From the NCBI GenBank assembly GCA_045577945.1, contig JAZNJG010000197.1, forward strand, positions 1 through 59,826: a stretch of DNA of 59,826 nt. Direction: 5' to 3'. Origin of the DNA: Bacilli bacterium (GTDB lineage: Bacteria > Bacillota_I > Bacilli_A > ML615J-28 > CAG-698). The notes under the pieces are model-generated. The model did not search any database. It worked only from the letters and a program-made list of their open reading frames with translations, and was not told where the DNA came from. Shown here piece by piece: positions 9,997-48,646 of the stretch. Position numbers and translations under genes: made by a program. Each line of letters begins with the position of its first letter. Within the stretch, counting starts at the first letter, position 1.

Positions 9997-10025
9997 TTTG
10001 TTCTCCTTGTGAATTTGGTTGGTTT

Positions 10026-10107: not shown

Positions 10108-10160
10108 AGATATAATATTTTTATAATTAAATAAATTAAGTAAATGAAAGGTGATATAAT

Positions 10161-10883: not shown

Positions 10884-11127
10884 TAATATATTTGAAAAAT
10901 ATACGATTTTAGAGAATCTAAATTGGAAAGGAACATTTAAAGATGGTCAGATTTTTATCAAATGTTTCATTGAAGATTTGAAAGGTTATAAAGTATGTGG
11001 TTTATCAACAGATAGAAAACCAAGATTAATAACCTTATTTTTATTAAAAGAAGATATTGATAAGTGCAAAATATTAACCAAATCTGATTTATTGCAAAAT
11101 TATATAAACGAAATGAAAGGAAAGTAA
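10876..11127 (+). CDS. hypothetical protein
   Basis: 83-aa ORF that overlaps the queC stop and abuts dut. Confidence 0.4.
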   Translation: MNNNIFEKYTILENLNWKGTFKDGQIFIKCFIEDLKGYKVCGLSTDRKPRLITLFLLKEDIDKCKILTKSDLLQNYINEMKGK

Positions 11128-11128
11128 A

Positions 11129-11596
11129 ATGTCTTGTTGTGAAAATAGAGTTCAATTAAAATTTTGGAAAGAAAGAGAAGATGCACAAATTCCAGAAGTG
11201 GCTTATGGTGGTAGTTCAGCTTGTTGGGATCTAATCGCAGTTGAAGATACCGTTATTCCAGCAAGAGGATCAGCAATTGTTGAAAACGGTTTGCGTGTAA
11301 TGATTCCTGAAGGCTGGTATTTGAAAATTTCTGATAGAAGTGGCAACGGGTTTAAAAAAGGTCTGCACTGCCACCACGGAATTTTAGATAGCTTTTACTC
11401 TGGTTCAATAGGAGTGAAATTATATAATATGACAGATCAGGATCAAATTATTCAAAAAGGTAATGGAATTTGCCAAGTTGAAACATTCAAAAAACCAAAT
11501 ATTGAAATCTGTGAAGCAACACCAGAAGAATGGGAAGAATATAGTCAAAACACAATTCGTGGTGAAAATGGTTTTGGATCATCAGATAAAAAATAA
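11129..11596 (+). CDS. dut: dUTP diphosphatase (trimeric dUTPase)
   Basis: Motifs SSACWDL, ISDRSGNG, HGILDSFYSGSIGV, and C-terminal RGENGFGSSD. Confidence 0.85.
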   Translation: MSCCENRVQLKFWKEREDAQIPEVAYGGSSACWDLIAVEDTVIPARGSAIVENGLRVMIPEGWYLKISDRSGNGFKKGLHCHHGILDSFYSGSIGVKLYNMTDQDQIIQKGNGICQVETFKKPNIEICEATPEEWEEYSQNTIRGENGFGSSDKK

Positions 11597-11725: not shown

Positions 11726-11776
11726 TAACATACATCTTAAAATTTATAAAAGAATTAATAAACGAAAGTGATAAAA

Positions 11777-13330
11777 ATGAATGATTTTGATTTCTATATT
11801 AACGTATTTCAACACAGAGATAATATACTAGTTAGCGGGTATAAAGATAGTAAAAAAGTTTATAAATCTATTGAGTTTAAGCCTATTCTATTTAGAGAAT
11901 CGAATAAAAATACAAATATTAAAAATATTAACAATAAATTTTTAGAACCTATACAGTTTGAGAGTAATAGTCATTTTTATAACTTTGTTAGACAAAATAA
12001 AGAAATATCAAATATGAAGCTTTATGGAACTGAAAATTTAAAAATGCAATGGATCTCAGATAATTTCCCAAATAATATTAAAGCTGACTATTCAAGATTT
12101 CGTAAAATTTTTATCGATATCGAAACATGCTGTGAATTAGGATTTCCAGATCCAACTATTGCACCCGAGCCAATTAATGCTATTACATATTATGATTCAC
12201 TTCTACAAAAATATTTTGTGTTAACAAATAAAGATTTTGGTTGTGTAAATATATCTGATGAAGAGTGCGTGATTATTCAATGTGAAAATGAAAGAGAATT
12301 ATTACTAAAATTTATATCAATATGGACTTCAAACTACCCTGATGTTATCACTGGTTGGAATACTGTTCTTTTTGATACACCATATATTATAAATCGAATT
12401 AAACAAGTATTAGGCGATCACTATGTAAAAAAATTATCTCCTTTTGGTGTTGTTAATAGTAGAGATGTCAAGTTTATGAACGGTACTAAAAAACAAGCAT
12501 ATGAAATAATCGGTGTTAATGAACTTGATTATCTTGATCTCTATAAGAAATTTTCATATGGAGAAAAACCGAGCTATTCACTAAAATATATAACAACTCT
12601 TGAATTAGGTGAGACAAAACTTGATCACGAAGAATTTGCTTCTATGCACTTATTCTATAAAGAAAACTATCAAAAATTTATAGAGTATAATATTCAAGAT
12701 GTTAAGTTAATTGTAAAGCTTGATGAGAAATGTAAATTTATAAATTTAGCTGCACAAATTGCCTATTTAGCAAAAATTAATTTTAAAGAATGTTATTCAC
12801 CTGTAGTAACATGGGAATCACTTATTTATAATTATTTAAAGGAAAAAAATATATATAGTGAGATTACTAGTAAAGAAGCAATTGGTGGTGGTTATACAGG
12901 TGCATTTGTTAAACAACCAATACCAGACAGATATAAGTGGATTGTATCATTTGACCTAAATAGTTTGTATCCTTCACTAATTAGACAATTCAATATATCA
13001 CCTGAAAAAATTATTTCAGATTCAGAAAGAAATAGAATATTTATTGAACTGAAATCTCAAAATGAAGAGAATTATAAAAGGATATCAACACCAGATTCAG
13101 CTATGGAAAATATAGTAACCGGTTCATTAGATACAAATTATTTCAAAGAACATAATATTAGTTTATCTGGATCAGGTTATTTATTTAAAAGAGATAGTCA
13201 GGGATTTTTACCAGCTATTATGGAATACATATACAATCAACGAAGAGCTGTTAAGAAAGAGATGTTATGGCATGAATCAAATGTTGAGAAAATAAGAGCA
13301 GAAATTCATCGACGTGGTTTGAAAATTTAA
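11777..13330 (+). CDS. gp43: family-B DNA polymerase, N-terminal part (exonuclease domain through motif A), gp43A-like
   Basis: ExoI FIDIET, ExoII-like NTVLFDTPYI, ExoIII YNIQDV, and polymerase motif A SFDLNSLYPSLI. It ends at TAA 13328..13330. ATG 11777 is preferred over GTG 11768. Confidence 0.85.
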   Translation: MNDFDFYINVFQHRDNILVSGYKDSKKVYKSIEFKPILFRESNKNTNIKNINNKFLEPIQFESNSHFYNFVRQNKEISNMKLYGTENLKMQWISDNFPNNIKADYSRFRKIFIDIETCCELGFPDPTIAPEPINAITYYDSLLQKYFVLTNKDFGCVNISDEECVIIQCENERELLLKFISIWTSNYPDVITGWNTVLFDTPYIINRIKQVLGDHYVKKLSPFGVVNSRDVKFMNGTKKQAYEIIGVNELDYLDLYKKFSYGEKPSYSLKYITTLELGETKLDHEEFASMHLFYKENYQKFIEYNIQDVKLIVKLDEKCKFINLAAQIAYLAKINFKECYSPVVTWESLIYNYLKEKNIYSEITSKEAIGGGYTGAFVKQPIPDRYKWIVSFDLNSLYPSLIRQFNISPEKIISDSERNRIFIELKSQNEENYKRISTPDSAMENIVTGSLDTNYFKEHNISLSGSGYLFKRDSQGFLPAIMEYIYNQRRAVKKEMLWHESNVEKIRAEIHRRGLKI

Positions 13331-13345: not shown

Positions 13346-14467
13346 GTGGAAGTTAATTTTGATGATTTATCGAGTATTAGTGATGATAACTTGATAAAAT
13401 TGTATCATGTTGAAGAAGAGAAAGGAAATGATGGTGAAATAACACAAAAGGCTTTAAAGATTCTTTTAAATAGTGGGTATGGAGCACTTGGTAATTCTTA
13501 TTTTCAATTTTTTGATTTAAGATTAGCGGATAGTATTACACGTTCAGGACAATGTGCTGTGCGATGGATGGAGAGATGGTTAAATGGTTTCTTAAATAAA
13601 TATTTTCATACTGAAAATGAAGATTATGTAATTACCATCGATACAGATAGTTTATATTTAAATCTTGAATATCTCATTAATAAAATAAAAGAGAAGCAAA
13701 CATCATTAACAGATGAAGAATGTATTAATATCTTAGATAAATTTGCACATGAAGTAGTTGAAAAACAAATTGAAAAAGGGTATGAAGAATTTTATAAGTA
13801 TTTAAATGCTTTTGAAAATCAGATGGTTATGAAAAGAGAGTGTTTATGCTCTTCAGGTGTATTTGTTGCTAAAAAAAGATATGCATTAAATGTTTTTGAT
13901 AATGAAGGTGTTCGTTATGAAAAACCAAAATTAAAAATTAAAGGATTAGATGTAGTTCGTTCATCTACACCTGACTCAATTAAAAGTGACATGAAAGAGT
14001 GTTATAAAATTATATTAGAGAAAAATGAAAGAGATTTACAAGATTATATCATTCAGGTAAAAGATAAATATAAATCACTATCTCTTGAGGAAATTAGTAT
14101 AGTTTCATCAATTAGTGATATTGATAAATTTACAACAACTGATAATTCAATACCAAAAGGTTGTCCTATGCACGTTAGAGGTTCTATTATTTATAATAAA
14201 TTAGTTAAGGAACTTAAATTAGAGCATATATATCCATTAATTAAATCAGGTGATAAAATTAAATATATATTTCTTAAGATGCCAAATCATGCATTCTCAG
14301 ATGTTATAGCTTACCATAATCATTTTCCTGAAGAATTTGATCTAATTAATTATATTGATTATGATAGAATGTTTGAAAGATCGTTTACTGGTTCTATCGA
14401 AAATATAACAACACCGATTAAATGGTCATGGGAGAAGAAGAATAGTATTGATGAATTATTTGGTTAG
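13346..14467 (+). CDS. gp43: family-B DNA polymerase, C-terminal part (motifs B and C, thumb), gp43B-like
   Basis: Motif B KILLNSGYGALGN and motif C ITIDTDSLY. The C-terminal IDELFG resembles the T4 gp43 clamp-binding tail. GTG start with AAGGAGG 5 nt upstream, in the same frame as the upstream part. Confidence 0.85.
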   Translation: MEVNFDDLSSISDDNLIKLYHVEEEKGNDGEITQKALKILLNSGYGALGNSYFQFFDLRLADSITRSGQCAVRWMERWLNGFLNKYFHTENEDYVITIDTDSLYLNLEYLINKIKEKQTSLTDEECINILDKFAHEVVEKQIEKGYEEFYKYLNAFENQMVMKRECLCSSGVFVAKKRYALNVFDNEGVRYEKPKLKIKGLDVVRSSTPDSIKSDMKECYKIILEKNERDLQDYIIQVKDKYKSLSLEEISIVSSISDIDKFTTTDNSIPKGCPMHVRGSIIYNKLVKELKLEHIYPLIKSGDKIKYIFLKMPNHAFSDVIAYHNHFPEEFDLINYIDYDRMFERSFTGSIENITTPIKWSWEKKNSIDELFG

Positions 14468-18569: not shown

Positions 18570-19136
18570 ATGTCTAATCACTTAATGATTGATATTGAAA
18601 CTCTAGGTATATGCGCAACATCAGTTGTGTTATCAGTTGGTGTGGTTGTATTTGATGATGAGTATAATATTATTGATAAAAAGATGTATGTCCTTGACAA
18701 AAGAGAGCAGCTCGAAAAAGGCCGAACATATAATAAAGATACGATTGAATTTTGGAATAATCAACCTGTTGAAGCTAAAAAACAATTTCATACAGATCAC
18801 CTATACTCAATTGAAGAATTTAAAAATGATTTTAATAAATTTGTTAGAAGTTATGATATTGATTTAGTATGGTCAACTGCACCAAATTTAGATATTGCTT
18901 GTATTCAAACATTATTAGAATTAGATAAAAATGGTGATAGTGTAATTCCTTGGAAATTTAACAAAATACGAGATGTTAGAACAGTTCGTGATTATTTAAA
19001 GCAATACCCAAAACGTGAAGGTGTATATCACGATGCAATTGATGACTGCTTATATCAAATTGAATGTTTAAAATTATCAATACGTGATATGTTTATATAT
19101 GGTTATCATCAAATTAATAAACAATTGAAAGATTAG
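18570..19136 (+). CDS. DEDDh 3'-5' exonuclease (DnaQ-fold)
   Basis: ExoI MIDIETLG and C-terminal YHDAIDDCLYQ (H-x4-D). Confidence 0.7.
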   Translation: MSNHLMIDIETLGICATSVVLSVGVVVFDDEYNIIDKKMYVLDKREQLEKGRTYNKDTIEFWNNQPVEAKKQFHTDHLYSIEEFKNDFNKFVRSYDIDLVWSTAPNLDIACIQTLLELDKNGDSVIPWKFNKIRDVRTVRDYLKQYPKREGVYHDAIDDCLYQIECLKLSIRDMFIYGYHQINKQLKD

Positions 19137-19753: not shown

Positions 19754-20644
19754 ATGAAAATTGTTGAAACAAATATAGAAATATTAACACCATTAAACGG
19801 TGATAATATACTAAAACAAATAGAGATTGCTGCACGTAATTGTTACAAATCTGAAGATAAAATTACAGAAAATAGCGATTCAGCAAAAAAGATCATTAAA
19901 ATGCTATTAGATAATCATCATGAAGCTATGATTGAATTTGGTCCAGATATTACAGTTAAGTTATATTGTGATGTTGGTGTATATAAGGACTTAACCCGCC
20001 ATAGGCACTGTAGTTTTGCTATTGAATCAACGAGATATTGTAATTACTCAAAAGATAAATTTGGGGAAGAGATTGCTTTTATTAGACCTACTAATATATG
20101 TAAGGATACTGAAGAATACAATATCTGGTATAATTGTATGTGTAATATTGAAGATTCCTATAATAAAATGGCTAAGCTGGGTTGTAAACCCGATCAGTTA
20201 AGAATGTTATTACCGCACTCAACTGCAGCAAGTGTAGTTATGAAAGCTAATATACGTGAATGGAGGCATATTCTTAAATTAAGAACTTCACAAGCAGCAC
20301 ATCCATCAGTTCAACAAGTGATGAAAAAAATTCTTTATAAATTTAAAGAATCTATTCCTCTTCTATTTGATGATATTATAACAAGTGAGGAATCAAAGTA
20401 TCTTAATTTGAAAGAAGAATTACAAAATGGTATTTTAGAAGTTCGTTTTTACAAAAAAGATGGGTCTATTAGAGTAATGAAATGTACATTAAAAAGTGAT
20501 ATACTACTAAATATACAAGATAGTTCTTATAGTATATCTAAGAAAACCTATAACCCAGAAACAATATCAGTATTTGATATTGAGAAAAATGACTGGAGAT
20601 CATTTAGAATAGATTCAATAATTGATTATGAAATAATGTATTAA
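19754..20644 (+). CDS. thyX: FAD-dependent thymidylate synthase ThyX with a ~85-aa C-terminal extension
   Basis: ThyX signature TRHRHCSFAIESTRY (RHRxxSxxxxSxR) and REWRHILKLR. The core ends near aa 210. The extension reads ILEVRFYKKDGSIRVMKCTL...NDWRSFRIDSI. Confidence 0.9.
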   Translation: MKIVETNIEILTPLNGDNILKQIEIAARNCYKSEDKITENSDSAKKIIKMLLDNHHEAMIEFGPDITVKLYCDVGVYKDLTRHRHCSFAIESTRYCNYSKDKFGEEIAFIRPTNICKDTEEYNIWYNCMCNIEDSYNKMAKLGCKPDQLRMLLPHSTAASVVMKANIREWRHILKLRTSQAAHPSVQQVMKKILYKFKESIPLLFDDIITSEESKYLNLKEELQNGILEVRFYKKDGSIRVMKCTLKSDILLNIQDSSYSISKKTYNPETISVFDIEKNDWRSFRIDSIIDYEIMY

Positions 20645-21871: not shown

Positions 21872-22720
21872 ATGAAGTTTTTGAAAAGTGATAATTATAA
21901 TGATGATTTAGTTAATACAAACAAAGATAGCTTATTTATTTTTGGTGATAATTTATTACGTTGTGGTAAAGCAGGTCAAGCTATAATCAGAGATAATAAA
22001 AATACATTTGGTATTGCTACAAAAAAAGCACCAGATATGAATGAAAATTCATTCTATAATGATAATTTAGAATGTTTTGAATATGTACTACAAGATATAT
22101 TAAAACTTATTTCTACAATAAGAAAAACTAATTATAATAATATATATTTACCATCAAATGGTATAGGAACAGGTTTAGCGCAATTAAATAAAAGAGCACC
22201 TTATATATTAAATTTTATTAACCAATCACTATATACTATTGAGCAAATAACAAAAGATACAGATACTTGTATACATAATATTGAGATATATACTGATGGT
22301 AGCTGTCAGGTTCATGATTCTGAGAAACCTGGTGCAGCTGCTGCAATTATTATACTAAATGATTCTATTATATATGAAAATTCAAAAAAATTCAAAAATA
22401 CAACTAATAATCAAATGGAATTATTATCTGCAATAATTGCTTTAAAGGAATTAGAGCGCTTAGATTTACTACAGCACTCTAAAATTACACTATACAGCGA
22501 TTCACAATACCTTATAAACGGTATGATGAAATATATAGATAACTGGAAAAGTAATAATTTTAATGGAATAAAAAATCCCGAGTATTGGAAAATATTAAAC
22601 ACTTTTCAAAAATATAATATTGATTATCAATGGATTAAAGGTCATAATAATAATTATTATAATGAAAGAGTAAATAAATTAGCACAAAACGCTATGAGGA
22701 GTTTACAATATGAATATTAA
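21872..22720 (+). CDS. rnhA: RNase HI fused to an uncharacterised ~135-aa N-terminal domain
   Basis: C-terminal half: IYTDGSC, NNQMEL, LYSDSQY, WIKGHNNNYYNERVNKLA. It is collinear with E. coli RNase HI, with Asn where D134 would be. Confidence 0.8.
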   Translation: MKFLKSDNYNDDLVNTNKDSLFIFGDNLLRCGKAGQAIIRDNKNTFGIATKKAPDMNENSFYNDNLECFEYVLQDILKLISTIRKTNYNNIYLPSNGIGTGLAQLNKRAPYILNFINQSLYTIEQITKDTDTCIHNIEIYTDGSCQVHDSEKPGAAAAIIILNDSIIYENSKKFKNTTNNQMELLSAIIALKELERLDLLQHSKITLYSDSQYLINGMMKYIDNWKSNNFNGIKNPEYWKILNTFQKYNIDYQWIKGHNNNYYNERVNKLAQNAMRSLQYEY

Positions 22721-25646: not shown

Positions 25647-27062
25647 ATGAGTGATTTTATAGATATTCAACTGATGATTGAAGAAGAAAGAAAAAGACAG
25701 GAAAATGAAATCTGTTTAATTGCTTCGGAAAATTATATGTCAGAATGTGTAATGGATGCTTGTGGCACAATTTTTATCAACAAATATGCAGAAGGTTATC
25801 CTAATCGAAGATATTATGGTGGTTGCTCTGTTGTTGATAAATTAGAAGATAAAGCCAATGAATTGGCAAGAAGATTATTTAAATGTAAATGGTCAAATGT
25901 TCAACCAAATAGTGGTTGTCAAGCAAACCAAGCAGTATATATGGCATTGTTAAATCCAAATGATACAATTTTAGGTATGGGAATTAATGAAGGTGGTCAT
26001 ATTTCACACACATTACCTATTGGATTTGCAGGAACATTTTATAATAGTGTTTCATATGGTTTAGATAAAAATGGTTATTTAAACTATGATGAAATTAAAG
26101 AAAAATTATATCATTATCATCCAAGATTATTAATTGTTGGTGCAAGTGCTTATTCAAGAATTATTGATTTTGAAAGAATTAGAAGTATTGTTGATGAATA
26201 CAATAATAGAGAATCAGAAACTATTTGTGAAAAATGTAGAAATGAAAAAGATTATCCAAATGGTAAATGTGAAGATTGTGAAATAATATCAGATAGTAAT
26301 TTTGAATCAAATAGATGTTTAATTATGGTTGATATGGCTCATATTGCTGGTTTAGTTGCAACTGGATTACATCCATCACCATTACCATATGCTGATGTTG
26401 TTACTTCAACTGTTCAAAAAACATTAAGAAGTGGTAGAGGTGGTTTAATTCTTTCAAATAATGAAGAATTGGGGAAACAAATTGATAAAGCAATATTCCC
26501 AAGATTACAAGGTGGTCCATTGATGAATATGATTGCTGGTAAAGCAATTGGATTTGAAGAAGCATTACAACCATCTTTTAAACAATATCAGACACAAGTT
26601 TTAGCAAATGTTAAAGCTATGGAAAAAGTGTTTAAAGAAAGAGGTGTTAAAATGGTTTCTGGTGGTTCAGATAATCATTTAATTCTTCTTGATTTAAGAG
26701 ATAAAAACATTTCTGGCCAACAGTTAGAAAATGCTTTATCAGAAATTGGTATTGTTGTTAATAAAAATGCAGTTAAAGATGACCCAAGACCAAAATCAGA
26801 AACATCTGGCGTTAGAATTGGAACTCCTGCAATAACAACAAGAGGTGCAAGAGAAAAAGATTGTGCTTTTATTGCCCATCAAATTTGTCATATGATTGAT
26901 ATTCTAACTGGTGAATATGATTACGATGGTATTTCATTATATAAAGCAATATTCGAAAAACAATTGGAAAGAGAATTGACTGATAGAGAAGTTGCTATTG
27001 AATTGATGAAAGAAAATACAGAAAATTTCTGTCAACATCATCCAATTTATCCAAATATATAA
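25647..27062 (+). CDS. glyA: serine hydroxymethyltransferase with a ~37-aa 4-Cys insertion
   Basis: LIASENY, NKYAEGYPNRRYYGGC, MVDMAHIAGL, PLP-lysine segment TSTVQKTLRSGRGG. The insertion ICEKCRNEKDYPNGKCEDCE lies between IVDEY and CLIMVDMAH. Confidence 0.9.
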   Translation: MSDFIDIQLMIEEERKRQENEICLIASENYMSECVMDACGTIFINKYAEGYPNRRYYGGCSVVDKLEDKANELARRLFKCKWSNVQPNSGCQANQAVYMALLNPNDTILGMGINEGGHISHTLPIGFAGTFYNSVSYGLDKNGYLNYDEIKEKLYHYHPRLLIVGASAYSRIIDFERIRSIVDEYNNRESETICEKCRNEKDYPNGKCEDCEIISDSNFESNRCLIMVDMAHIAGLVATGLHPSPLPYADVVTSTVQKTLRSGRGGLILSNNEELGKQIDKAIFPRLQGGPLMNMIAGKAIGFEEALQPSFKQYQTQVLANVKAMEKVFKERGVKMVSGGSDNHLILLDLRDKNISGQQLENALSEIGIVVNKNAVKDDPRPKSETSGVRIGTPAITTRGAREKDCAFIAHQICHMIDILTGEYDYDGISLYKAIFEKQLERELTDREVAIELMKENTENFCQHHPIYPNI

Positions 27063-39658: not shown

Positions 39659-39694
39659 CAAAAGCCTATCTAGTTTAGATAGGCTTTTATTTTA
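39659..39694. terminator. terminator between convergent genes
   Basis: aaaagcctatcta-gtt-tagataggctttt followed by atttt. Confidence 0.7.
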
Positions 39695-40180
39695 GTGAAA
39701 ATTGTTAAATGTATCTTCAGTTAAAATTAAAAATTCAAATCCCTTACTCTTACAAAACTCTCTTGTTGCTTTCCATTTTGCTTGATTAATTAAAAATGTT
39801 TTAACTTGGTTTTGGTATTTTTTAGTCATACGGTTTTTTGGTGTTGGTTGTGGTGGTTTAGTTTGGTTTTTTGGTTTAACCTCGATGAGAATAATTTGCT
39901 GTTTAATTTGATCTTGTATCTTTCTTTTAACACAAATTATAAAATCAATGAAATAGTTATGGTATTTTTTATCTATTGGTGAAATATATGGTATTGTAAA
40001 TCCCTCACTCGACCAGTATATAATTGATGTATTTATATCACAATATTCACAGAATCTTCTTTCCCATGAGCTTCGACAAATTATAGGTAAGGTACCTTTA
40101 TATTTTTCTTTATTCTTAGGTGTATAGTATGATTGACATACGTTACCATATCCAGCTGGGTTAAGTTTGGGTTTTAACAT
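39692..40180 (-). CDS. gp4: head completion nuclease-like protein (gp4-like)
   Basis: YYTPKNKEKYKG...CRSSWERRFCEYCD...IPYISPIDKKYHNYFIDF...IEVKPKNQT...NQAKW matches the gp4-family pattern. Confidence 0.72.
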   Translation of the reverse strand: MLKPKLNPAGYGNVCQSYYTPKNKEKYKGTLPIICRSSWERRFCEYCDINTSIIYWSSEGFTIPYISPIDKKYHNYFIDFIICVKRKIQDQIKQQIILIEVKPKNQTKPPQPTPKNRMTKKYQNQVKTFLINQAKWKATREFCKSKGFEFLILTEDTFNNFH

Positions 40181-41268: not shown

Positions 41269-41309
41269 AATAAGAGGTCAAAAAGTTATCACGACCTCTT
41301 ATTTTTTTG
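41269..41309 (+). terminator. intrinsic terminator
   Basis: aataagaggtc-13 nt loop-gacctcttatt followed by tttttt. Confidence 0.7.
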
Positions 41310-41338
41310 TTGAATATATTAAAAATTTAATATATAAT
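41310..41338 (+). promoter_or_regulatory. sigma70-type promoter candidate TTGAAT-17-TATAAT
   Basis: Consensus -10 box, near-consensus -35 box, 17-nt spacer. It sits after a terminator and before the 41367-45485 gene block. Confidence 0.45.
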
Positions 41339-41366: not shown

Positions 41367-41561
41367 ATGCAAAAGATTAAAATTATATTACGCGGCGATC
41401 TTAATGAAGAAGAAAAAGATTGTATTCGAAATAGGATTCAGTCATTTAATGTATCATTAAGCGAAACAATTAAAAATGGTTTTGATATATACTATTATAG
41501 TCTATCTGGTGTAAAATCATATTGGTCAAAGTATGCAAAAGAATTTATTGAAATTAAATAG
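41367..41561 (+). CDS. hypothetical protein
   Basis: AAGGAG RBS; 64 aa. Confidence 0.45.
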   Translation: MQKIKIILRGDLNEEEKDCIRNRIQSFNVSLSETIKNGFDIYYYSLSGVKSYWSKYAKEFIEIK

Positions 41562-41577
41562 TGAAAGGTATGTAGAA

Positions 41578-41808
41578 ATGGAAAAATTTAAATCACACCA
41601 ACAAGTTCATGAAAGATGTAAAGAGTTAATAGCTGATAAACAAATTGTATGCCAAACAATTCAAGATATGGCTACTTTAAGTTTTGAATATTTAAGTTTA
41701 TTTAATTTAGAATACGATTATATTTTTCAAGATTTAGATGAGACTAGTGATACATATGGTATGTGGAAAGTAGGTCGTGGTCGAAATATAGATAATTATT
41801 TAAATTAA
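41578..41808 (+). CDS. hypothetical protein
   Basis: ATG 41578 with AAAGG RBS is preferred to the overlapping ORF-track start 41533. Confidence 0.4.
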   Translation: MEKFKSHQQVHERCKELIADKQIVCQTIQDMATLSFEYLSLFNLEYDYIFQDLDETSDTYGMWKVGRGRNIDNYLN

Positions 41809-41877
41809 ATTATTGAAATTGTATAATCTCTAAAATATATTAAATTTATATTTAATATAAAGGGTTTATTCAAATAC

Positions 41878-42072
41878 ATGACAACAAAACACTATATATC
41901 TTTAGAAGACGCAGATAAATATTATAATTACGGTTTTGATATATATGTCGAAACAACAACAGTAATAAAAGTCGATCATAAATTTAGTGATAATATTGAT
42001 GATAACGATAATATATCTAGCGTTAGTCAGAATAATAAGTATTATATCGAAATTGAAAGTTTAATACAGTGA
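41878..42072 (+). CDS. hypothetical protein
   Basis: 64-aa ORF. An extended -10 (TGTATAAT) lies at 41820-41827. Confidence 0.4.
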   Translation: MTTKHYISLEDADKYYNYGFDIYVETTTVIKVDHKFSDNIDDNDNISSVSQNNKYYIEIESLIQ

Positions 42073-42500
42073 AAATATTTACACACGTTGAAGAAGAGAA
42101 AGATAAAAGCTTAGTTGGGTTAGTATTAGTTGGTGATCATAATAAAATATATCAACAAGTACAATTTGATATAAATGCGAATAAATTTGAAGCTAGTATG
42201 ATTGGAATAAAGAGGGCATTATTATTTGTTGATAATAACAAACCATTATATTGTAATGATAATATAATGATTTATTCTAATTTAAATAACTATAATGATA
42301 ATTTAAATTTAGAAAATCGTGTTTTAAGGGATGAATATATTAATAAATTTAAGTGTAAACATAACCAAGGTATTGAATTAAATTATAAACCAGTTAAAGA
42401 TGAAAATAAAGAGTTTATGAATATAGCTCAAATATTAGTAAATGTTCATAAAAGACAACAATATGCATTGAGTTTATCAAACAAAGGAAATTCTAAATGA
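42069..42500 (+). CDS. hypothetical protein
   Basis: GTG start overlapping the upstream stop; its own stop overlaps the cca start (ATGA). Confidence 0.4.
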   Translation: MKIFTHVEEEKDKSLVGLVLVGDHNKIYQQVQFDINANKFEASMIGIKRALLFVDNNKPLYCNDNIMIYSNLNNYNDNLNLENRVLRDEYINKFKCKHNQGIELNYKPVKDENKEFMNIAQILVNVHKRQQYALSLSNKGNSK

Positions 42501-43759
42501 GAATATATTTAGTTGGTGGTGCTGTTAGAGATTCATTATTAAAAATTCAATCACATGATAAAGACTGGGTAGTTGAAGGTGCTACTATACAAGAGATGTT
42601 AGATGCTGGTTTTAAACAAGTAGGTAAAGAATTTCCAGTATTTCTACACCCAGAAACAAATGAAGAATATGCTTTAGCAAGAAAAGAAAAGAAAACAGGA
42701 GATAAGCATACTGATTTTGAATTTGATTTTTCTCCAAACGTTACATTAGAAGAAGACCTAGCTAGAAGAGATTTCACAATAAACGCATTTGTATTAGATA
42801 GTGGAGATTATATTCGAGATTATTTTCATGGTTTTGATGACTTAAAAAATAAATTAATAAGAGCAATCAGACCAGAAACATTTATTGAAGACCCACTAAG
42901 AGTGTTGAGAGGTTGTCGTTTTGCTGCTCAATTAGATTTTAATATTGAACCAAACACTATGGATTTATTTAAAAAAATGGTTAGAGATGGAATGTTATCT
43001 CATCTCACACCAGAAAGAGTATGGAAAGAAACAGAAAAAGCACTAACTAGTGGATATTCATCAGAAAAATATTTTGAATTATTAAATGAATGCGGTGCAT
43101 TAGAAACGTTGTTTCCTGAAATTTATAAATTAGTAAATACACCAGAACAAATTAAATATCACCCGTCAGGAAATACATTTAAACATACAATGATTGCATT
43201 ATCGAGAGTTAAAAATGAATCATCTTTAACTAAATTCATAGTATTATGTCATGATTTAGGTAAAGGAACGACACCTGAAAATATTTTACCACAACATATT
43301 AAACATGATGAAAGAGGAATTGAGCAAATAGATTTGTTATGTGATCGATTAAAAGTACCAAATATATTTAGAGGGTGTGCTAAAACTTTTTGTAAACACC
43401 ATATGAGAATGGCTAAATTCGATATATTGTCGATTAAAAAACAATATGATTTAGTGCAAGAACTATCATCAAACTTTAAAAATCAACAATTATTACAAAT
43501 ATATAATAAATGTTTTTATGCTGATTATAATGGGGAGGAAAAGCTAACTAAATATAATGATCCATTGATTGCAAAGAATATTATACATCAAATTAATAAT
43601 GTATTTGATATAATGGAAGGTATTACATTAAAAGACTTACCAGAAAAAATACAGAAAAATTTAATGAAGCAAAAATATGAAAAAATTGGTATTCTATATC
43701 GTGAAAATATGATAAAATATCTTAAAGAAAAATTAAAAGAAAGAGAAACTTATGAGTGA
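42497..43759 (+). CDS. cca: CCA-adding tRNA nucleotidyltransferase with HD phosphohydrolase domain
   Basis: Nearly collinear with E. coli Cca: MRIYLVGGAVRDSLL, DKDWVV, FPVFLHPETNEEYALAR, RRDFTINA, EDPLRVLR, LTPERVWKETEKAL, HPSGNTFKHT, LCHDLGKG. Confidence 0.92.
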   Translation: MRIYLVGGAVRDSLLKIQSHDKDWVVEGATIQEMLDAGFKQVGKEFPVFLHPETNEEYALARKEKKTGDKHTDFEFDFSPNVTLEEDLARRDFTINAFVLDSGDYIRDYFHGFDDLKNKLIRAIRPETFIEDPLRVLRGCRFAAQLDFNIEPNTMDLFKKMVRDGMLSHLTPERVWKETEKALTSGYSSEKYFELLNECGALETLFPEIYKLVNTPEQIKYHPSGNTFKHTMIALSRVKNESSLTKFIVLCHDLGKGTTPENILPQHIKHDERGIEQIDLLCDRLKVPNIFRGCAKTFCKHHMRMAKFDILSIKKQYDLVQELSSNFKNQQLLQIYNKCFYADYNGEEKLTKYNDPLIAKNIIHQINNVFDIMEGITLKDLPEKIQKNLMKQKYEKIGILYRENMIKYLKEKLKERETYE

Positions 43760-44372
43760 AGAAAAAGATTACTATTTAGAGCAAGTATTAGAATTTGCTT
43801 ATGAAAAACATAAAGATCAAAAAAGAAAATATACAAACGAGCCATATATTAATCACCCAATTAATGTAGCTATGATCATTGAGGAAGCGTTTTCCCATAC
43901 ACCAGAACTTTATATGTATTCTGATAAACTACCTATAAGAATCAATACTGTAATTGGTGCTTGGTTACATGATGTAGTTGAAGACACTAATACATCTTTT
44001 GTAGAAATTGAAGAAAAATTTGGTATTCATATTCGAAATATTTTATATTATGTAACTAATATTTCAAAACCAACAGATGGAAATAGAAAAATTCGTAAAA
44101 AAATTGATATGGCTCATAATCTTAAAGGTCCTGTTGAATCCATAATGATCAAATTAGCAGATATTATTGATAACTGTAATGGTATAATGAAAAGAGACTC
44201 TTCGTTCGGTAAAAAATATTTAATAGAAAAACAACAATTCTTATTGAATTTAGTTGGCCAGGGATATTATAATAATTTTAAAGAAATAGTTGATAAGCCT
44301 CTATTTGAAGTTTTAGAATATTTGTATACTAAAGCTTGGACTACTATTAAAACTGAGATTGGAGTTAATTAA
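43752..44372 (+). CDS. SpoT/Mesh1-type HD-domain small alarmone hydrolase
   Basis: FAYEKHKDQKRKYTNEPYINHPINVA, AWLHDVVEDT, FG..IRNILYYVT, and KLADIIDNCN match the (p)ppGpp-hydrolase HD domain (HP..VA, LHDvvEDT, KLADRlhN). Overlaps the cca stop by 8 nt. Confidence 0.78.
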   Translation: MSEEKDYYLEQVLEFAYEKHKDQKRKYTNEPYINHPINVAMIIEEAFSHTPELYMYSDKLPIRINTVIGAWLHDVVEDTNTSFVEIEEKFGIHIRNILYYVTNISKPTDGNRKIRKKIDMAHNLKGPVESIMIKLADIIDNCNGIMKRDSSFGKKYLIEKQQFLLNLVGQGYYNNFKEIVDKPLFEVLEYLYTKAWTTIKTEIGVN

Positions 44373-44374
44373 AA

Positions 44375-44593
44375 ATGAAACTTACACCGAGATTTAATTT
44401 TAATCAAAAAGTATTTAGTCAGATATATCAACGATATGTTATTATTTCTAATGTTAAAATAGAAACATATGGTAATATTATAACTAAGAATGGTGAATCA
44501 TTTAAACGCTGTTCTGAAGTATATGAAATTAAATTCCGTGATCCATCAATTATGAGATATGAATGGGTTGATGTTGATGATTTAATTCCGTGA
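44375..44593 (+). CDS. hypothetical protein
   Basis: 72-aa ORF beginning 2 nt after the upstream stop. Confidence 0.4.
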   Translation: MKLTPRFNFNQKVFSQIYQRYVIISNVKIETYGNIITKNGESFKRCSEVYEIKFRDPSIMRYEWVDVDDLIP

Positions 44594-44603
44594 GTAGTAT
44601 AAA

Positions 44604-45485
44604 ATGCCTAGATCATATTCTAAATTTTTTTACAAAGAAAAAATTGGTGAGCGTGAAGTTACTAATAAATTTAATACAACTGAAAAATGGAAAGAACCAA
44701 TTTATAAAGATAAAAAGATGAAAATTCGAATAATGTCGGATCTTCATTTAGATTATAATAATCGATATCCACTAGAATTAAAAGATAAGGATATATTTAC
44801 TATTATTGCTGGAGATTTATCTGGTTATTCTGAATATAGAGATGAATGGTTAAAAGAAAACATACATAATGGTTTATTTGTTGAAGGTAATCATATATTT
44901 TATAATAATGAGAATAAAACACTTCAACAATACTATAAAGAATTACAAAATAAATATCCACTAGATTCAAATTTATCATTCTTACAAAATCAGTATAAAA
45001 TTATAAATGATGTTGTTTTTGTTGGCTGTACATTATGGACTGATTGTAGATTATATGGTAAAAAATATATAGCAGATTTACCTAAGCGAATGAATGATTA
45101 TAGATATGGTAAATATAAAGCAGGTAATAAAAAAAGAACCTTTACACCTCAAGATTCAATAAACGAATTTAATGAATCGTTAAAGTATATTGAAGAAGTG
45201 AGTGACTTATATCCTTCTCATAAAATTGTTGTTATTACCCATCATTGCCCTTCAATAAAATGTATATCTAAGCATTATAGATTAGGGGACTGCAATCATG
45301 CATATGCATCGAATTTAGAAGGGTTTATACAAAATCACAATAATATTGTTTGCTGGATATGTGGACATAGTCATAATTCATGTGATTTTAAAATTGATGG
45401 TTGTAGAGTGATTATGAATTGTCGTGGGTATGTTCCATACGGTGAAGATATAAAATTTAATAAAAATAAGGTAATTTATATTTAG
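44604..45485 (+). CDS. calcineurin-like metallophosphoesterase
   Basis: IMSDLHLDYN, IAGDLSG, EGNHIFY, ITHHCP, CGHSHN. An internal ATG at 44715 (MKIRIM) is an alternative start. Confidence 0.72.
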   Translation: MPRSYSKFFYKEKIGEREVTNKFNTTEKWKEPIYKDKKMKIRIMSDLHLDYNNRYPLELKDKDIFTIIAGDLSGYSEYRDEWLKENIHNGLFVEGNHIFYNNENKTLQQYYKELQNKYPLDSNLSFLQNQYKIINDVVFVGCTLWTDCRLYGKKYIADLPKRMNDYRYGKYKAGNKKRTFTPQDSINEFNESLKYIEEVSDLYPSHKIVVITHHCPSIKCISKHYRLGDCNHAYASNLEGFIQNHNNIVCWICGHSHNSCDFKIDGCRVIMNCRGYVPYGEDIKFNKNKVIYI

Positions 45486-45497
45486 GAAATTAATAAT

Positions 45498-45626
45498 ATG
45501 ATTTTTATACACTATATTATAATAATTTTAGTTTTTATATGGATGTTATATGATTTATTAAATGATAACCAGGTAAAAAGAATATTGAGAAATATAAAAA
45601 ATAAGTTGAATAAAGATAAGAAATAA
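45498..45626 (+). CDS. possible 42-aa single-pass membrane peptide (absent from the ORF track)
   Basis: AGGAAA RBS. MIFIHYIIIILVFIWMLY followed by a Lys-rich tail. Confidence 0.3.
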   Translation: MIFIHYIIIILVFIWMLYDLLNDNQVKRILRNIKNKLNKDKK

Positions 45627-45802
45627 TTATATTGATATAGTTGTCTAATTAAAAAGAAAGAGTGAATATGAAAAGATACTTAACAAATATTAAAATGCTA
45701 TATAAATTACTAACACTAAAATTAAAAGGTATTAATGTATTTCCAATTTATGTACAGGGTTATATTTTAATTATTGAAAAAATATAATAATATGAGGTTA
45801 TA

Positions 45803-46345
45803 ATGAAACGCTGCTGCTTAACAATTGTTGAAGATAAAATTAATAATAAAATATTAATGGTTCAAAACATGAGAGGTGTTAACAAAGGTTTTTATAACTT
45901 TCCAGGTGGAAAAATAGAACCTTTTGAAACTATTGAAGAGGGTAGTATACGTGAAAATATTGAAGAAACTGGTATTATCCCTATCGATCTAAAAACTTTA
46001 GGTAAAGTTGAATTTCATCCAATTAATATGGTTGTTCATGTATTTTATACAAATCAATTTAAGGGTGAATTAACCCCGTCAAATAATAATGAAAATAGAG
46101 CGTTTTGGGTTGATAGAGATAATATACCGTTTGATAAAATGAGAAAAACAGATCAAGCTTGGGTTAAAGATGTAATTGAGGGAAAACATATCAATAAAAG
46201 AATATATTTTAATGATGATTTTAGCTTAAATCGTATAGAAGATGTATATGAGAATATTGAAAAATATAAACAGCGATATAATAAATTTATTCAACTACGT
46301 AAACATAAATATTTACAAATAAAAGCAAGTAATATAAAAAGGTAA
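45803..46345 (+). CDS. NUDIX hydrolase
   Basis: Nudix box GGKIEPFETIEEGSIRENIEETGI. Confidence 0.85.
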   Translation: MKRCCLTIVEDKINNKILMVQNMRGVNKGFYNFPGGKIEPFETIEEGSIRENIEETGIIPIDLKTLGKVEFHPINMVVHVFYTNQFKGELTPSNNNENRAFWVDRDNIPFDKMRKTDQAWVKDVIEGKHINKRIYFNDDFSLNRIEDVYENIEKYKQRYNKFIQLRKHKYLQIKASNIKR

Positions 46346-46350: not shown

Positions 46351-46827
46351 ATGTCTGATAATATTAGCGAGATTGATAAAAAATTAAACGCTATATTAGG
46401 TGTTGATTATGTAGAGGAAGAGCAATTAACATCTAGCGAAATTGCAAATATTGAACCTGCTGATATTGAAGTAATTGAACCGATACAATCAGATTTAGTA
46501 TTACCAGAGCAAATAGATCAATCAGATATTGATTTTGAATTTGCTAGGCAGAATATTAAAAGGTTATCTGATATAGGTATGGAGAATATAGAAAAATTAT
46601 CATACGTCGCTAGAGATTCTCAAACACCTAGAATGTATGAAGTATTGTCGGGTATGATTAAAAATATAAGTGATATTAATTCGAATTTAGTTGATATGCA
46701 TAATAAAAAAATATCATCAACGTCATCTCATGCAGAAGAACCAGCACCTATAAATGTTAATCAAGCTATTATTTGCACTAGCACTGATGCGCTAAAGCGA
46801 ATTAAAGAACGTAAGAATAATAACTGA
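46351..46827 (+). CDS. gp16: terminase small subunit (gp16-like)
   Basis: DSQTPRMYEVLSGMIKNISDINSNLVDMH parallels T4 gp16 [28 protein letters not shown]. It sits directly upstream of terL. Confidence 0.62.
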   Translation: MSDNISEIDKKLNAILGVDYVEEEQLTSSEIANIEPADIEVIEPIQSDLVLPEQIDQSDIDFEFARQNIKRLSDIGMENIEKLSYVARDSQTPRMYEVLSGMIKNISDINSNLVDMHNKKISSTSSHAEEPAPINVNQAIICTSTDALKRIKERKNNN

Positions 46828-46870: not shown

Positions 46871-46912
46871 AATCTCCTCAATAAATAGTTATATAAATTG
46901 AGGAGATTTTTT
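46871..46912 (+). terminator. 12-bp hairpin plus T-run whose 3' arm contains the terL Shine-Dalgarno
   Basis: aatctcctcaat-14 nt loop-attgaggagatt then tttt. GAGGAG at 46900-46905 lies 7 nt before ATG 46913. Confidence 0.6.
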
Positions 46913-48646
46913 ATGCACATAATTGATGAAGAGCAGTTAAAAATTGATTCTGAAAGAGCAAATTCATACTTAAAATCAATTTCATTTATGAATAACTTTC
47001 TATTGAAACCAGAAGGAACTCAATGTGAACTCACAGAGGTTATGTTAGATGAGTATGAAAATTGTATGGATGATTATATGTATTTTATTGAACGCTATAT
47101 GAAAATTGTGAGTGTAGATAAAGGTATCATACCATTCAATCCATATGACTACCAACGTAAAATGATTAAAAATTTTTATGAAAACAGATTTTCAATTAAT
47201 TTATGCCCACGTCAATGTGGTAAAACTACAATTGTAACTGGGTTTGGTCTACATTTTACGATGTTTAATGAAAATAAATCTATAGCAATTTTAGCAAATA
47301 AACAAGCAACAGCTGTTGAAATACTTGATCGAATTAAATTAGCATATGAAAATTTACCAAAATGGATGCAGCACGGTGTAAGAACATGGAATAAAACTGA
47401 GGTTGTTTTTGAGAATGGATGTAAAATTGGCGCTTATAGTTCATCAAGTTCAGCAATAAGGGGAATGTCTTTAAGTTGCGTTATTATTGATGAGTGTGCG
47501 TTTATTAATAATAACATTTGGGAAGAATTCTATATGTCTGTTTACCCAGTTATTTCATCTGGTAAAGAAACTCGAATCATAATGGTCTCAACACCTAAAG
47601 GGTTAAACCACTATTATAAATTATGGAGAGATGCTGAAGCTGGTCGTAATTCATATATACCTTTTAAGATTACTTGGAGAGATGTACCTGGTCGTGATGA
47701 AAAGTGGAAAGAAGAGACAATTCAAAATAATGGTGAAAGAGCATTTATGCAAGAACATGAAGTTAATTTTCTCGGCTCTTCAAATACTCTTTTTGATATG
47801 AACAAAGTTCAAGAAATTGTACCACAAACACCAATTATTGATGATATTGATAACTTTACAAAAATTTATGAAGAACCAATTGAAGGTCATAATTATATTG
47901 CTTTTGTTGATGTATCTGAGGGTAAAGAACAAGATAGTTCTGTTATACAGGTATTTGATATATCATCAGAACCATATAAGCAAGTTGCTGTATTTTGTTC
48001 GAGTACTATTTCATTAATGCTATTTCCTTTCTATATTAATCAATTAGGTAAAAAATATAATGATGCCTATCTATTAATTGAAAATAATTCAATAGGAACA
48101 TCTGTTACGAATGATTTATTTAATGATTTTGAGTATGAAAATATTTTATATTCATATAAAGATGATGGAAAAATTTATATTGATGATGGTCAAGATGATA
48201 AAGGTGAAATGGGAATTAGAATGACCAAATCATCTAAAAAAATTGGATGTAATAATATTAAAGAAATATTTGAAAATGGAAAATTAGAAATTTGTGATAT
48301 GGATACTATTTCACAAATGTCAACTTTCATTAGAATAGGTACTAGTTATGCAGCAGACCCTTCTGCAAAAGCTCATGATGACTTAATCACACCATTAATT
48401 CATATGGGATTTTTAATTAAGCAGAGATGGTTTAAAGAACTATTAAAAGAAGATATAAGAGCTAATATTGCTAATAATAAGATTAAAAATGATAAAATGT
48501 TTATCGGTTTTCGAAAAATAGGAGATGAGCAAGAAAACCTGACAATAGATTCTGATGATATATTTGCAGGGTGGGATAATGTTAGTTCAACTAACTATGA
48601 AAGAAAGAAAAAGCAATTTAACAATCATTTATTTTACTCTAAATAA
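46913..48646 (+). CDS. gp17: terminase large subunit (gp17-like)
   Basis: Walker A LCPRQCGKTT, Walker B VIIDECAF, coupling VSTPKG, and C-terminal nuclease HDDLITP. ATG 46913 is preferred to the TTG at 46898. Confidence 0.9.
   Translation: MHIIDEEQLKIDSERANSYLKSISFMNNFLLKPEGTQCELTEVMLDEYENCMDDYMYFIERYMKIVSVDKGIIPFNPYDYQRKMIKNFYENRFSINLCPRQCGKTTIVTGFGLHFTMFNENKSIAILANKQATAVEILDRIKLAYENLPKWMQHGVRTWNKTEVVFENGCKIGAYSSSSSAIRGMSLSCVIIDECAFINNNIWEEFYMSVYPVISSGKETRIIMVSTPKGLNHYYKLWRDAEAGRNSYIPFKITWRDVPGRDEKWKEETIQNNGERAFMQEHEVNFLGSSNTLFDMNKVQEIVPQTPIIDDIDNFTKIYEEPIEGHNYIAFVDVSEGKEQDSSVIQVFDISSEPYKQVAVFCSSTISLMLFPFYINQLGKKYNDAYLLIENNSIGTSVTNDLFNDFEYENILYSYKDDGKIYIDDGQDDKGEMGIRMTKSSKKIGCNNIKEIFENGKLEICDMDTISQMSTFIRIGTSYAADPSAKAHDDLITPLIHMGFLIKQRWFKELLKEDIRANIANNKIKNDKMFIGFRKIGDEQENLTIDSDDIFAGWDNVSSTNYERKKKQFNNHLFYSK

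Follow-up and report, generated by a model that had tools for sequence, protein, structure and literature searches.

A Cca, alarmone hydrolase and metallophosphoesterase gene string upstream of the terminase genes of an uncultured T4-like phage: a candidate set for tRNA 3′-end maintenance

Transfer RNA is a major target of bacterial immunity, as exemplified by PrrC, PARIS, retrons, Cas13, Cas12a3 and toxSAS/CapRel, and the known answers of phages to such attack are spare tRNAs and repair by Pnkp and Rnl1. The HD domain of E. coli Cca has 2′,3′-cyclic phosphodiesterase, 2′-nucleotidase and phosphatase activities, and calcineurin-type phosphoesterases have been documented as RNA 3′-end healers in the cases of CthPnkp and lambda phosphatase (PMC2190708). 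Here we describe a 59,826-nt stretch of phage DNA (contig JAZNJG010000197.1 of assembly GCA_045577945.1; its full length is called the window below) in which a gene for the CCA-adding enzyme Cca is followed by genes for a small alarmone hydrolase (SAH), a small conserved protein and a calcineurin-like metallophosphoesterase (MPE).

Four toxSAS toxins pyrophosphorylate the CCA end of tRNA, and an SAH alone restores aminoacylation of tRNA modified in this way (Kurata et al., 2021, bioRxiv 10.1101/2021.04.30.441581). Two stand-alone phage SAHs, PaSpo of SSU5 and PbcSpo of PVP-SE1, neutralise CapRel, PhRel, PhRel2, FaRel2 and FaRel (Jimmy et al., 2020, PMC7229694), and PaSpo removes the tRNA modification (PMC11245113). 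Among homologues of the window's SAH, alarmone-hydrolysing, tRNA-deblocking or toxSAS-neutralising activity has been shown for PaSpo, PbcSpo, ATfaRel and MESH1 (PMC7229694; PMC11245113; 10.1101/2021.04.30.441581). In jumbo phages, a CCA-adding enzyme is listed among the RNA-repair enzymes, an “HD-alarmone PDEase” is classed as a counter-nucleotide system, and calcineurin-like and Nudix enzymes are predicted to be counter-nucleotide factors (Iyer et al., 2021, PMC7824862). The MazG-like phage protein Atd1 is also documented to deplete (p)ppGpp. Each enzyme type considered here is thus already known in phages, and the anti-toxSAS role of phage SAHs, published in 2020, is a known concept, since PaSpo was reported to neutralise every toxSAS tested. 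What is new is the arrangement of these known families and the comparative pattern around phage SAHs, nothing in it being categorically new; the library searched held no paper linking phage SAHs to RNA-repair cassettes or tRNA arrays.

In the window, the block consists of accessory enzymes strung together in a clade-specific manner directly upstream of the terminase genes. The reading that we favour, with a probability of about one half, is that Cca, SAH, the 72-residue protein and MPE make up a ligase-free set for maintaining tRNA 3′ ends, which would “heal and rebuild” them. This reading is supported by intact catalytic residues in SAH, in both domains of Cca and in MPE, and by the activities of the homologue PaSpo. 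The layout is as follows (aa, amino acids; ORF, open reading frame).

41269..41308, plus strand: intrinsic terminator with an 11-bp stem (about 41269-41301), a 13-nt loop and U7, ending the endolysin unit
41310..41338, plus strand: sigma-70-like promoter match TTGAAT-17-TATAAT (10/12 matches), candidate start of the block's transcription unit
41367..42072, plus strand: three small ORFs (64, 91 and 64 aa) at the head of the unit
42069..42500, plus strand: ORF143 (143 aa), with an ATGA overlap with cca
42497..43759, plus strand: Cca (420 aa), class II CCA-adding tRNA nucleotidyltransferase that ends in an HD phosphohydrolase domain
43752..44372, plus strand: SAH (206 aa), single-domain RelA/SpoT-homologue (RSH) hydrolase, PaSpo-like
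44375..44593, plus strand: ORF72 (72 aa), conserved small protein between SAH and MPE
44604..45485, plus strand: MPE, calcineurin-like metallophosphoesterase of phosphodiesterase type
45498..45626, plus strand: 42-aa strongly hydrophobic ORF (MIFIHYIIIILVFIWMLYDLL...) in the 317-nt gap between MPE and NUDIX
45803..46345, plus strand: NUDIX hydrolase, MTH1/MutT-like
46351..46827, plus strand: TerS, small terminase subunit (phrog_445, 9.5e-20), the block boundary at which packaging and structural genes begin
46898-48646: TerL, large terminase subunit, downstream of TerS

A preliminary description of the window had proposed a tightly coupled block of Cca, SAH, MPE and NUDIX behind a terminator and a sigma70-like promoter. 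The ORFs that it named, the ATGA overlap at 42497 and the 8-nt overlap of cca and SAH at 43752 (ATGAGTGA) were all found where it placed them, and the terminator was confirmed by its stem and U7 tract and by its fold (dG -13.7 kcal/mol, z = -4.58; 0/200 shuffles fold as well); a consensus terminator scan had missed the site solely owing to its 13-nt loop. The promoter match exists as well; at 26% GC, however, the number of sites of this kind does not exceed that expected by chance (53 found vs 62.9 +/- 8.3 in shuffles). Its descriptions of Cca as full-length with an HD domain and of the HD protein as a hydrolase carrying the (p)ppGpp-hydrolase signature agree with the results given below, as does its statement that the window has no tRNA genes.

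The HD protein is, judged by its sequence, a bona fide and complete single-domain hydrolase of the Mesh1/SpoT type. In Pfam it matches HD_4 (6e-9), and its match to TIGR00691, spoT_relA, is confined to the hydrolase portion at the N terminus of that model (4.6e-20; positions 2-122 of 687). Within the 206 aa of the protein HD_4/HD is the only domain detected, with no synthetase, TGS or ACT domain. The best solved structure is Drosophila Mesh1 (3nqw, 2.6e-13), and further matches include human MESH1, the hydrolase halves of Rel enzymes (RelSeq) and bacterial SAHs. Residues R25, H35, H73-D74, E77-D78, D137 and N141 are invariant in 22 family sequences and, when aligned to Mesh1, MESH1 and RelSeq, correspond to the Mn2+ ligands and the catalytic ED pair. 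Over 164 aa the protein shares 37% identity with PaSpo of Salmonella phage SSU5 (E 3e-29) and, by analogy with its homologues, should also hydrolyse (p)ppGpp. Between its first HP motif and its HD motif, at residues ~46-68, lies an insertion of ~20 residues (AFSHTPELYMYSDKLPIRINT...) that is common only to low-GC relatives (P0006-P0012 and the clade of locus L001, described below) and absent from other SAHs, PaSpo included.

In at least eight contexts that are independent of one another, phage SAHs of the PaSpo-like family are surrounded by genes for tRNAs and for RNA repair. For 80 viral SAH loci, all ORFs were clustered and the loci were then partitioned by marker genes into lineage A, lineage B and others; clustering the loci by shared gene families had chained them into one large group and was replaced by this partition. 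A Pnk-type kinase and/or a small MPE is present in 46 of the 80 loci, the MPE at a median distance of 838 nt from SAH, in a string formed by a DSP/PTP-type phosphatase, an AAA_33 P-loop kinase (phrog_505, polynucleotide kinase), a 182-aa MPE (phrog_547), a small ORF and SAH. Rnl1-type RNA ligase (phrog_562, 7e-49) occurs in 26 SAH loci and a Ro/TROVE-like “RNA-binding protein” (phrog_850) in 17. tRNAs are found in 25 of the 46 kinase/MPE-type loci (208 tRNAs in total) and in 5 of 17 other loci, in two of which a tRNA lies ~100 nt from SAH, giving 30 of the 80 viral loci. Per 100 kb, there are 23.4 tRNAs around viral SAHs, vs 0.5 around PhoH, 0 around T4-like TerL and 1.8 around bacterial SAHs. 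The PhoH set serves as a lineage control, not a random one, being drawn mostly from one lineage and often itself possessing an SAH (26/71); TerL loci and bacterial SAH loci were added beside it as further controls. The repair genes are absent from the PhoH, the 84 TerL and the 80 bacterial SAH control loci, except for one RtcB near a bacterial SAH.

Cultured phages conform to this as well. Acidovorax phage ACP17 has the order Rnl1, an intervening gene, ATPase/kinase and, further on, SAH and phosphoesterase (MPE), while Pseudomonas phage PPSC2 has SAH, MPE, an intervening gene and Rnl1. Sinorhizobium phage phiN3 carries the SAH-like gp398, followed at a distance by the Pnk-type kinase gp391, gp390 and the MPE gp389, with a Band-7 gene beyond. 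In Caulobacter phage BL64 (66% GC), RtcB lies 2.5 kb from SAH, which lies 1.5 kb from PTH2; the SAH gene of Xanthomonas phage XacN1 has a tRNA array at a distance of 0.7 kb and a Band-7 gene nearby, and that of Stenotrophomonas phage DLP_6 has a tRNA at 2.4 kb and a TROVE-like gene nearby. The metagenomic locus L012 has RtcB, an intervening gene, SHMT and SAH, and the L001 clade has PTH2, SAH and Cca in that order, with other genes between them. Some public annotations in phiN3 (L296, 2485-3075) and BL64 (L297, 22083-24283) are probably mistaken: phiN3 gp391, a “putative polyA polymerase”, appears to be a P-loop kinase of the Pnk type, with 41% identity to that kinase family, and in BL64 the “peptidyl-tRNA transferase” appears to be a PTH2 hydrolase and the “cytidyltransferase” an NMNAT-NUDIX protein that adjoins NAMPT (NAD salvage). 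The BL64 “cytidyltransferase” had been considered as a possible Cca and was rejected. The loci L013-L092 (e.g., L046, 6000-10700; L033, 2000-7300) belong to a widespread viral lineage with a GC content of about 40-42% and a split Pnkp-like cassette, whose 182-aa MPE is related to Aquifex aq_1665 (PDB 1xm7) and which has Rnl1, a Ro/TROVE-like vWA protein (DUF2828/DUF7788) and large tRNA arrays within a few kb.

The window's Cca is, as far as its sequence tells, a diverged phage version of the multifunctional enzyme. It matches PolyA_pol (1e-21), PolyA_pol_RNAbd (9e-13) and phrog_2244 (2e-113), and its best NCBIfam family is NF008137, “multifunctional CCA addition/repair protein” (1.2e-121, residues 1-395 aligned); the score of 406.3 bits lies below the equivalog cutoff of 451, yet this is the best family by far. 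The Pfam HD match is weak (4.4e-4, just under cutoff). The head motifs G7-G8-V10-R11-D12, D21/D23, R90-R91-D92 (RRDFT) and D132-P133-L134-R135 are invariant in the clade alignment, as are the HD residues H222, H230, H252-D253, H270-D271 and H302. Over 335 aa the protein is ~50% identical to an enterobacterial Cca. Its identity to Cca of the loci L001, L002, L008 and L009 ranges from 48 to 70% and is discordant with that of the flanking genes: one relative has a Cca at 55% although its other proteins reach ~76%, and in the L001 lineage, which is unrelated apart from this, the value is 70%. The sequences are also mosaic, L008 and L009 having identical C-terminal halves and divergent N-terminal halves, and L001 and L002 sharing their C-terminal half; the L009 protein lacks the E of EDxxR. 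The discordant identities and recombining halves suggest that cca alleles have been exchanged or recombined within a pool of phages at 24-27% GC.

Close metagenomic relatives of the window keep the order endolysin ... ORF146, Cca, SAH, 72-aa protein, MPE, 42-aa protein, NUDIX, TerS and TerL; from Cca through TerS, this order is kept in relatives at 65-79% identity, whose structural proteins are 73-86% identical to those of the window. In one of them, L010 (13788-17521), a TnpB (Cas12f1-like_TNB) gene lies between TerS and TerL, and TerL is enlarged to 727 aa, possibly by an intein or insertion. Cca and SAH are also found near one another in a second, low-GC lineage, comprising L001-L006 and two positive Cca loci, where they are ~3.5 kb apart and in reverse order: RNase H, PTH2 ... 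YopX, SAH, (GIY-YIG), ~3.5 kb of small ORFs, Cca and Hsp20. In the regions compared, this lineage shares no other gene with the 59.8-kb window.

MPE matches Metallophos (1e-8) and phrog_1649 (4e-47), and the motifs of the dinuclear site are all present, D46-x-H48, G70-D71, G95-N96-H97, H213 and G254-H255-x-H257 being invariant in 40 sequences. Its AlphaFold 2 (AF2) model (pLDDT 94.3) has the MPE fold, and the top Foldseek match is M. tuberculosis PptH (TM ~0.65, 16% identity), followed by Dbr1, MPPED2, GpdQ and Rv0805, so that the model points to a PptH/Dbr1/GpdQ-like predicted phosphodiesterase. An identification as CpdA was rejected, the match to the NCBIfam cAMP phosphodiesterase being weak and partial. 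The NUDIX protein (1.2e-14) has an intact Nudix box, GX5EX7REUXEEXGU (GGKIEPFETIEEGSIRENIEETGI), and its best PDB matches are MTH1/NUDT1 (about 1e-14). MTH1 recognises its substrates through Asn33, Trp117, Asp119 and Asp120; in the alignment the NUDIX protein keeps the Asn (YNFPGG) and one Asp, with Trp117 replaced by R and Asp119 by T. It is a neighbour with no demonstrable tie to the repair set.

Under the favoured reading, Cca, SAH and MPE would act in parallel on the same class of substrate and not as an obligate pathway. SAH would hydrolyse the 3′-pyrophosphate set on the CCA end by toxSAS/CapRel-type enzymes, along with (p)ppGpp and (p)ppApp, as its homologues do. The HD domain of Cca would remove 2′,3′-cyclic or 3′-phosphates and its polymerase would re-add missing C, C and A to trimmed tRNAs, both activities being established for the E. 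coli-type enzyme. For MPE, the SAH-MPE pairs within heal-and-seal clusters of other phages suggest by analogy that it may act on further kinds of blocked end. A looser claim, that SAH works with tRNA-end repair and that Cca is a meaningful partner, gains support from the recurrence of SAH in tRNA/RNA-repair neighbourhoods of many independent phages, from the recurrence of the SAH-MPE pairing (in the window with a different MPE family), from the fact that PTH2, RtcB and Cca all act on tRNA, PTH2 and Cca on its 3′ end, and from the second, unrelated lineage that keeps SAH and Cca within 3.5 kb.

A number of observations weigh against this. Direct adjacency of Cca and SAH is limited to the window's clade, and conservation within one clade can be explained by simple inheritance. 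A Cca+SAH fusion query (tblastn against 50,697 phage records) found no place covering both and at most about 12 records with two places; general synteny of the two genes in phages was therefore rejected (0/50,697 adjacent pairs). No Cca was found in the flanks of the 80 viral SAH loci, and SAH was found near 2 of 39 viral Cca loci (27-70% Cca identity), both in the L001 clade; the pairing was seen in none of 84 T4-like TerL loci (877 kb) and none of 80 bacterial SAH loci (1.3 Mb). The tight spacing is a genome default and not the sign of a module, given that 43 of the 76 same-strand junctions in the window overlap or have a gap of at most 15 nt, 8-nt overlaps occur eight times, and the 5-nt gap between NUDIX and TerS is as tight as the junctions inside the block. 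Nor are the overlaps kept in relatives, which have gaps of 16 nt and larger, and L009 has an extra 305-aa minus-strand ORF (2485-3402) between ORF147 and cca. Cca is not needed against toxSAS pyrophosphorylation, since an SAH by itself restores aminoacylation (Kurata 2021). The MPE recurring beside SAH elsewhere (phrog_547) is of another family than that of the window; three homologues of the window's MPE, at 41-50% identity, have unrelated neighbours, which speaks against a conserved context; and neither lambda phosphatase nor CthPnkp is among its 50 best Foldseek matches, which lowers the case for membership in that branch, not the possibility of RNA-end healing. The Fisher tests of SAH loci vs controls (p = 3e-7 and 1e-11) compare loci that are phylogenetically non-independent; lineage B, with 17 SAH loci, has PhoH and PD-(D/E)XK neighbours and no tRNA, and the SAH contexts of SSU5, Dickeya JA29, E. 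coli Bas82 and BcepSauron have no RNA theme. ARAGORN found no tRNA in the 59.8-kb window, nor were any present in about 180 kb of relatives' flanks, an absence that for the window itself covers 60 kb, the whole genome being roughly 180 kb long. Finally, all activities of the block are predicted from sequence.

A strict four-gene module of Cca, SAH, MPE and NUDIX is not supported, since close coupling is what this genome shows by default, the adjacency goes back to inheritance within one clade, NUDIX and ORF143 show no link to the other genes, and MPE is non-orthologous to its counterparts and roams. Of the tRNA-end repair or counter-defence role that the preliminary description had suggested for such a module, the SAH theme is supported, through homology to PaSpo and the neighbourhoods of phage SAHs, and direct coupling to Cca is weakened; co-occurrence of cca and SAH, which it had proposed to look for in phage genomes, amounts to adjacency in the window's clade and a spacing of ~3.5 kb in the L001 clade, and the inclusion of NUDIX and MPE is weakened too. 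Both halves of the idea are in the literature already, and their coupling would be the new element.

The alternative that survives best, and that we consider a real though minority possibility, is that these are unrelated auxiliary genes in a hyperplastic region, SAH lowering host (p)ppGpp so that the stringent response is blocked and a slow-growing host stays productive, as has been proposed for MazG/Atd1 of phages, Cca doing housekeeping in the maturation of phage or host tRNAs, and MPE and NUDIX tuning nucleotide pools, with the adjacency simply inherited. The restriction of the adjacency to one clade and the default tightness of the junctions suit this account, as do the MTH1-like character of NUDIX, the unrelated neighbours of MPE homologues, and the discordant identity of Cca, which suggests allele exchange. 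So does the region itself, which is plastic, as shown by genes inserted in relatives and overlaps not kept there: a TnsA-like gene lies upstream, L009 has its extra ORF and L010 its TnpB. The lineage B SAHs without RNA context, the classing of HD-alarmone PDEases as counter-nucleotide enzymes by Iyer et al. and the documented depletion of (p)ppGpp by Atd1 point in the same direction. What this account leaves unexplained is why SAHs, but not the controls, stand beside tRNA arrays, Pnk-type kinases, Rnl1, RtcB and PTH2, and why Cca and SAH lie within 3.5 kb of each other in a second, unrelated lineage.

A wider proposal, which we put forward tentatively and hold to be rather doubtful, is that PaSpo-like phage SAHs are primarily RNA 3′-end healers and not alarmone hydrolases, forming a hitherto unrecognised component of phage tRNA repair, paired in many lineages with a small MPE, a Pnk-type kinase and Rnl1 or RtcB beside tRNA arrays, and that the window holds a ligase-free version of it, SAH with MPE and Cca, which would counter the blocking or clipping of CCA tails by toxSAS/CapRel or Cas12a3-like nucleases. 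If phage SAHs are tRNA 3′-end healers that here work with Cca, the block would be a counter-defence aimed at the CCA tail; hundreds of phage “ppGpp hydrolase” annotations would gain a natural role, and phages escaping CapRel-type systems could be predicted. If the genes are independent, the block is an ordinary accessory-gene island with a new member of two known phage enzyme families.

Two further alternatives fare less well. It is improbable that the block is an anti-defence cluster for degrading nucleotide signals, in which SAH, MPE and NUDIX would destroy immune messengers or toxic nucleotides such as (p)ppApp, cyclic nucleotides and ADP-ribose derivatives, with Cca incidental. It is true that (p)ppApp is a substrate of SAHs and that FaRel is neutralised by them, that MPE is similar in fold to phosphodiesterases, Rv0805/CpdA and GpdQ among them, with the weak cAMP phosphodiesterase match in addition, and that jumbo phages are predicted to have counter-nucleotide factors of the calcineurin-like and Nudix types (Iyer et al.); yet no substrate can be read from the best MPE match, PptH, at that similarity, NUDIX is closest to MTH1, a (d)NTP sanitiser, and not to enzymes acting on ADP-ribose or cyclic nucleotides, there was no match to any known anti-CBASS, anti-Pycsar or anti-Thoeris family, and MPE and NUDIX accompany SAH only within the clade. 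Less probable still is that Cca chiefly adds CCA to phage tRNAs whose genes lack it, encoded in an array outside the window, with SAH merely sharing the region: phage Cca is common (498 records), tRNAs (up to 20) occur near 9 of 39 viral Cca loci and the window covers about a third of the genome, but 30 of those 39 loci have no tRNA within 10 kb and neither the window nor the relatives' flanks contain one.

ORF143 has no Pfam, PHROG or NCBIfam match and is an ORFan, with only 4 close homologues among 5.8 billion proteins. The best Foldseek matches of its AF2 model (pLDDT 82.5) are RNase H1 structures (TM 0.55-0.60); the positions of the catalytic Asp residues are H/Y/F and S/N in the alignment, and an active RNase H was rejected on that account, as was kinship with the RNase H of the L001 lineage, to which it has no sequence similarity. 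The model suggests a degenerate RNase H1-like fold for this clade-restricted protein, which has no demonstrable functional tie to the block, and the separate full, presumably active RNase H elsewhere in the window is consistent with a degenerate paralogue-like fold. ORF72, which has no significant family match in Pfam, is 71-78% identical in L008 and L010, its position always being kept. The 42-aa hydrophobic ORF, which may encode a small membrane protein, is conserved: L008 and L010 have ORFs of 42 and 40 aa in the corresponding place. The three ORFs at the head of the unit are weakly conserved (36-54% identity in close relatives), and the one that was searched has no Pfam or PHROG match.

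The T4 late-promoter motif TATAAATA does not occur on the plus strand between 35.3 and 48.65 kb, and such motifs stand directly upstream of the sheath, portal and capsid-region genes. Like the sigma-70-like sites, they are not enriched overall, so that their positions alone are informative. Their absence across the block indicates that it is probably not transcribed late but belongs to an early or middle unit. An Rfam scan of the window gave no family at gathering score, tRNA-like elements and the ppGpp riboswitch included.

The window, at 26% GC, stays between 24 and 30% throughout and is phage DNA. It encodes T4-type replication proteins (UvsW, a split family-B polymerase, a UvsX/RecA-like protein, a DnaB-like helicase, gp59, gp32 and T4 RNase H) as well as structural, lysis and packaging proteins (baseplate gp53/gp5, endolysin, both terminase subunits, tail sheath, tube and portal). 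TerL is at most 47% identical to that of any cultured phage or IMG/VR contig, so that the source is an uncultured, distant T4-like myovirus; going by the contig sizes of relatives, the genome would be roughly 180 kb long, about three times the length of the window. An IMG/VR search with the single TerL protein gave relatives at 34-41% identity only, and an alignment-based TerL search of IMG/VR gave nothing above 47%; IMG/VR therefore contains no member of the window's clade, and the L001 clade represents a separate lineage.

Several other features of the window are worth recording. The family-B DNA polymerase consists of two adjacent ORFs, 11768-13330 (exonuclease and start of the polymerase) and 13346-14467 (remaining polymerase domain). 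ThyX (19754-20644) carries a C-terminal WYL_2 (Sm-like SH3) fusion, and SHMT (25647-27062; 471 aa) matches Pfam in two stretches, suggesting an insertion; SHMT also adjoins SAH in L012, where it is 67% identical. A full RNase H fused to DUF7831 lies at 21872-22720 and an Rv2179c-like 3′-5′ exoribonuclease at 18570-19136. The TnsA-like endonuclease gene (39692-40180, minus strand), between the baseplate genes and the endolysin, is the most conserved of its neighbourhood, at 85-86% identity in L008 and L010, which suggests a selfish or homing element. At 5588-11596 there is a 7-deazaguanine (queuosine-precursor) gene cluster, which also includes two small ORFs:

5588-6139: formyltransferase
6139-7359: 406-aa protein containing GNAT
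7353-7883: AAA_28/dNK-like protein
7887-8777: QueF-like nitrile reductase
8800-10038, minus strand: DUF7487
10161-10883: QueC

No DpdA/TGT was seen in this cluster, whose content suggests a preQ1-type DNA modification, possibly formylated. The QueC-DUF7487 pair is also found near an MPE homologue in L098.

Compared with known systems, the window's SAH is closest to PaSpo of SSU5, likewise a single-domain, stand-alone phage RSH hydrolase with the motifs RKYTxEPY-x-HP, LHDVVEDT and KLADxxDN. Unlike PaSpo, it has the ~20-residue insertion after the first HD helix pair, and it lies between Cca and MPE, whereas the neighbours of the SSU5 gene are all hypothetical. Phage alarmone removal against stringent-response or Abi-type restriction provides a second parallel, in Atd1 and the HD-alarmone PDEase described from jumbo phages; the fold of Atd1 is that of MazG, unlike the HD fold of SAH, and the jumbo-phage HD enzymes were filed without the tRNA/RNA-repair neighbourhood seen here around phage SAHs. 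Cca has the head, neck, body and C-terminal HD domain of the E. coli-type enzyme (NF008137), with its nucleotidyltransferase motifs and HD residues kept; it differs in being phage-encoded, in scoring below the equivalog cutoff and in having halves that appear to recombine among relatives. Lastly, the block may be likened to the heal-and-seal response of T4, in which Pnkp and Rnl1 act against PrrC, in that phage enzymes would restore tRNA ends damaged by host defence, and the heal-and-seal clusters of ACP17, PPSC2, phiN3 and the metagenomic lineage A contain SAH beside a small MPE. Unlike these, the window has no Pnk-type kinase, Rnl1 or other RNA ligase, RtcB, PTH2 or TROVE homologue (59.8 kb, E <= 0.01), and its MPE belongs to phrog_1649, with a PptH/Dbr1-like fold, and not to phrog_547; repair in this phage would proceed by re-synthesis of the CCA end and not by ligation.

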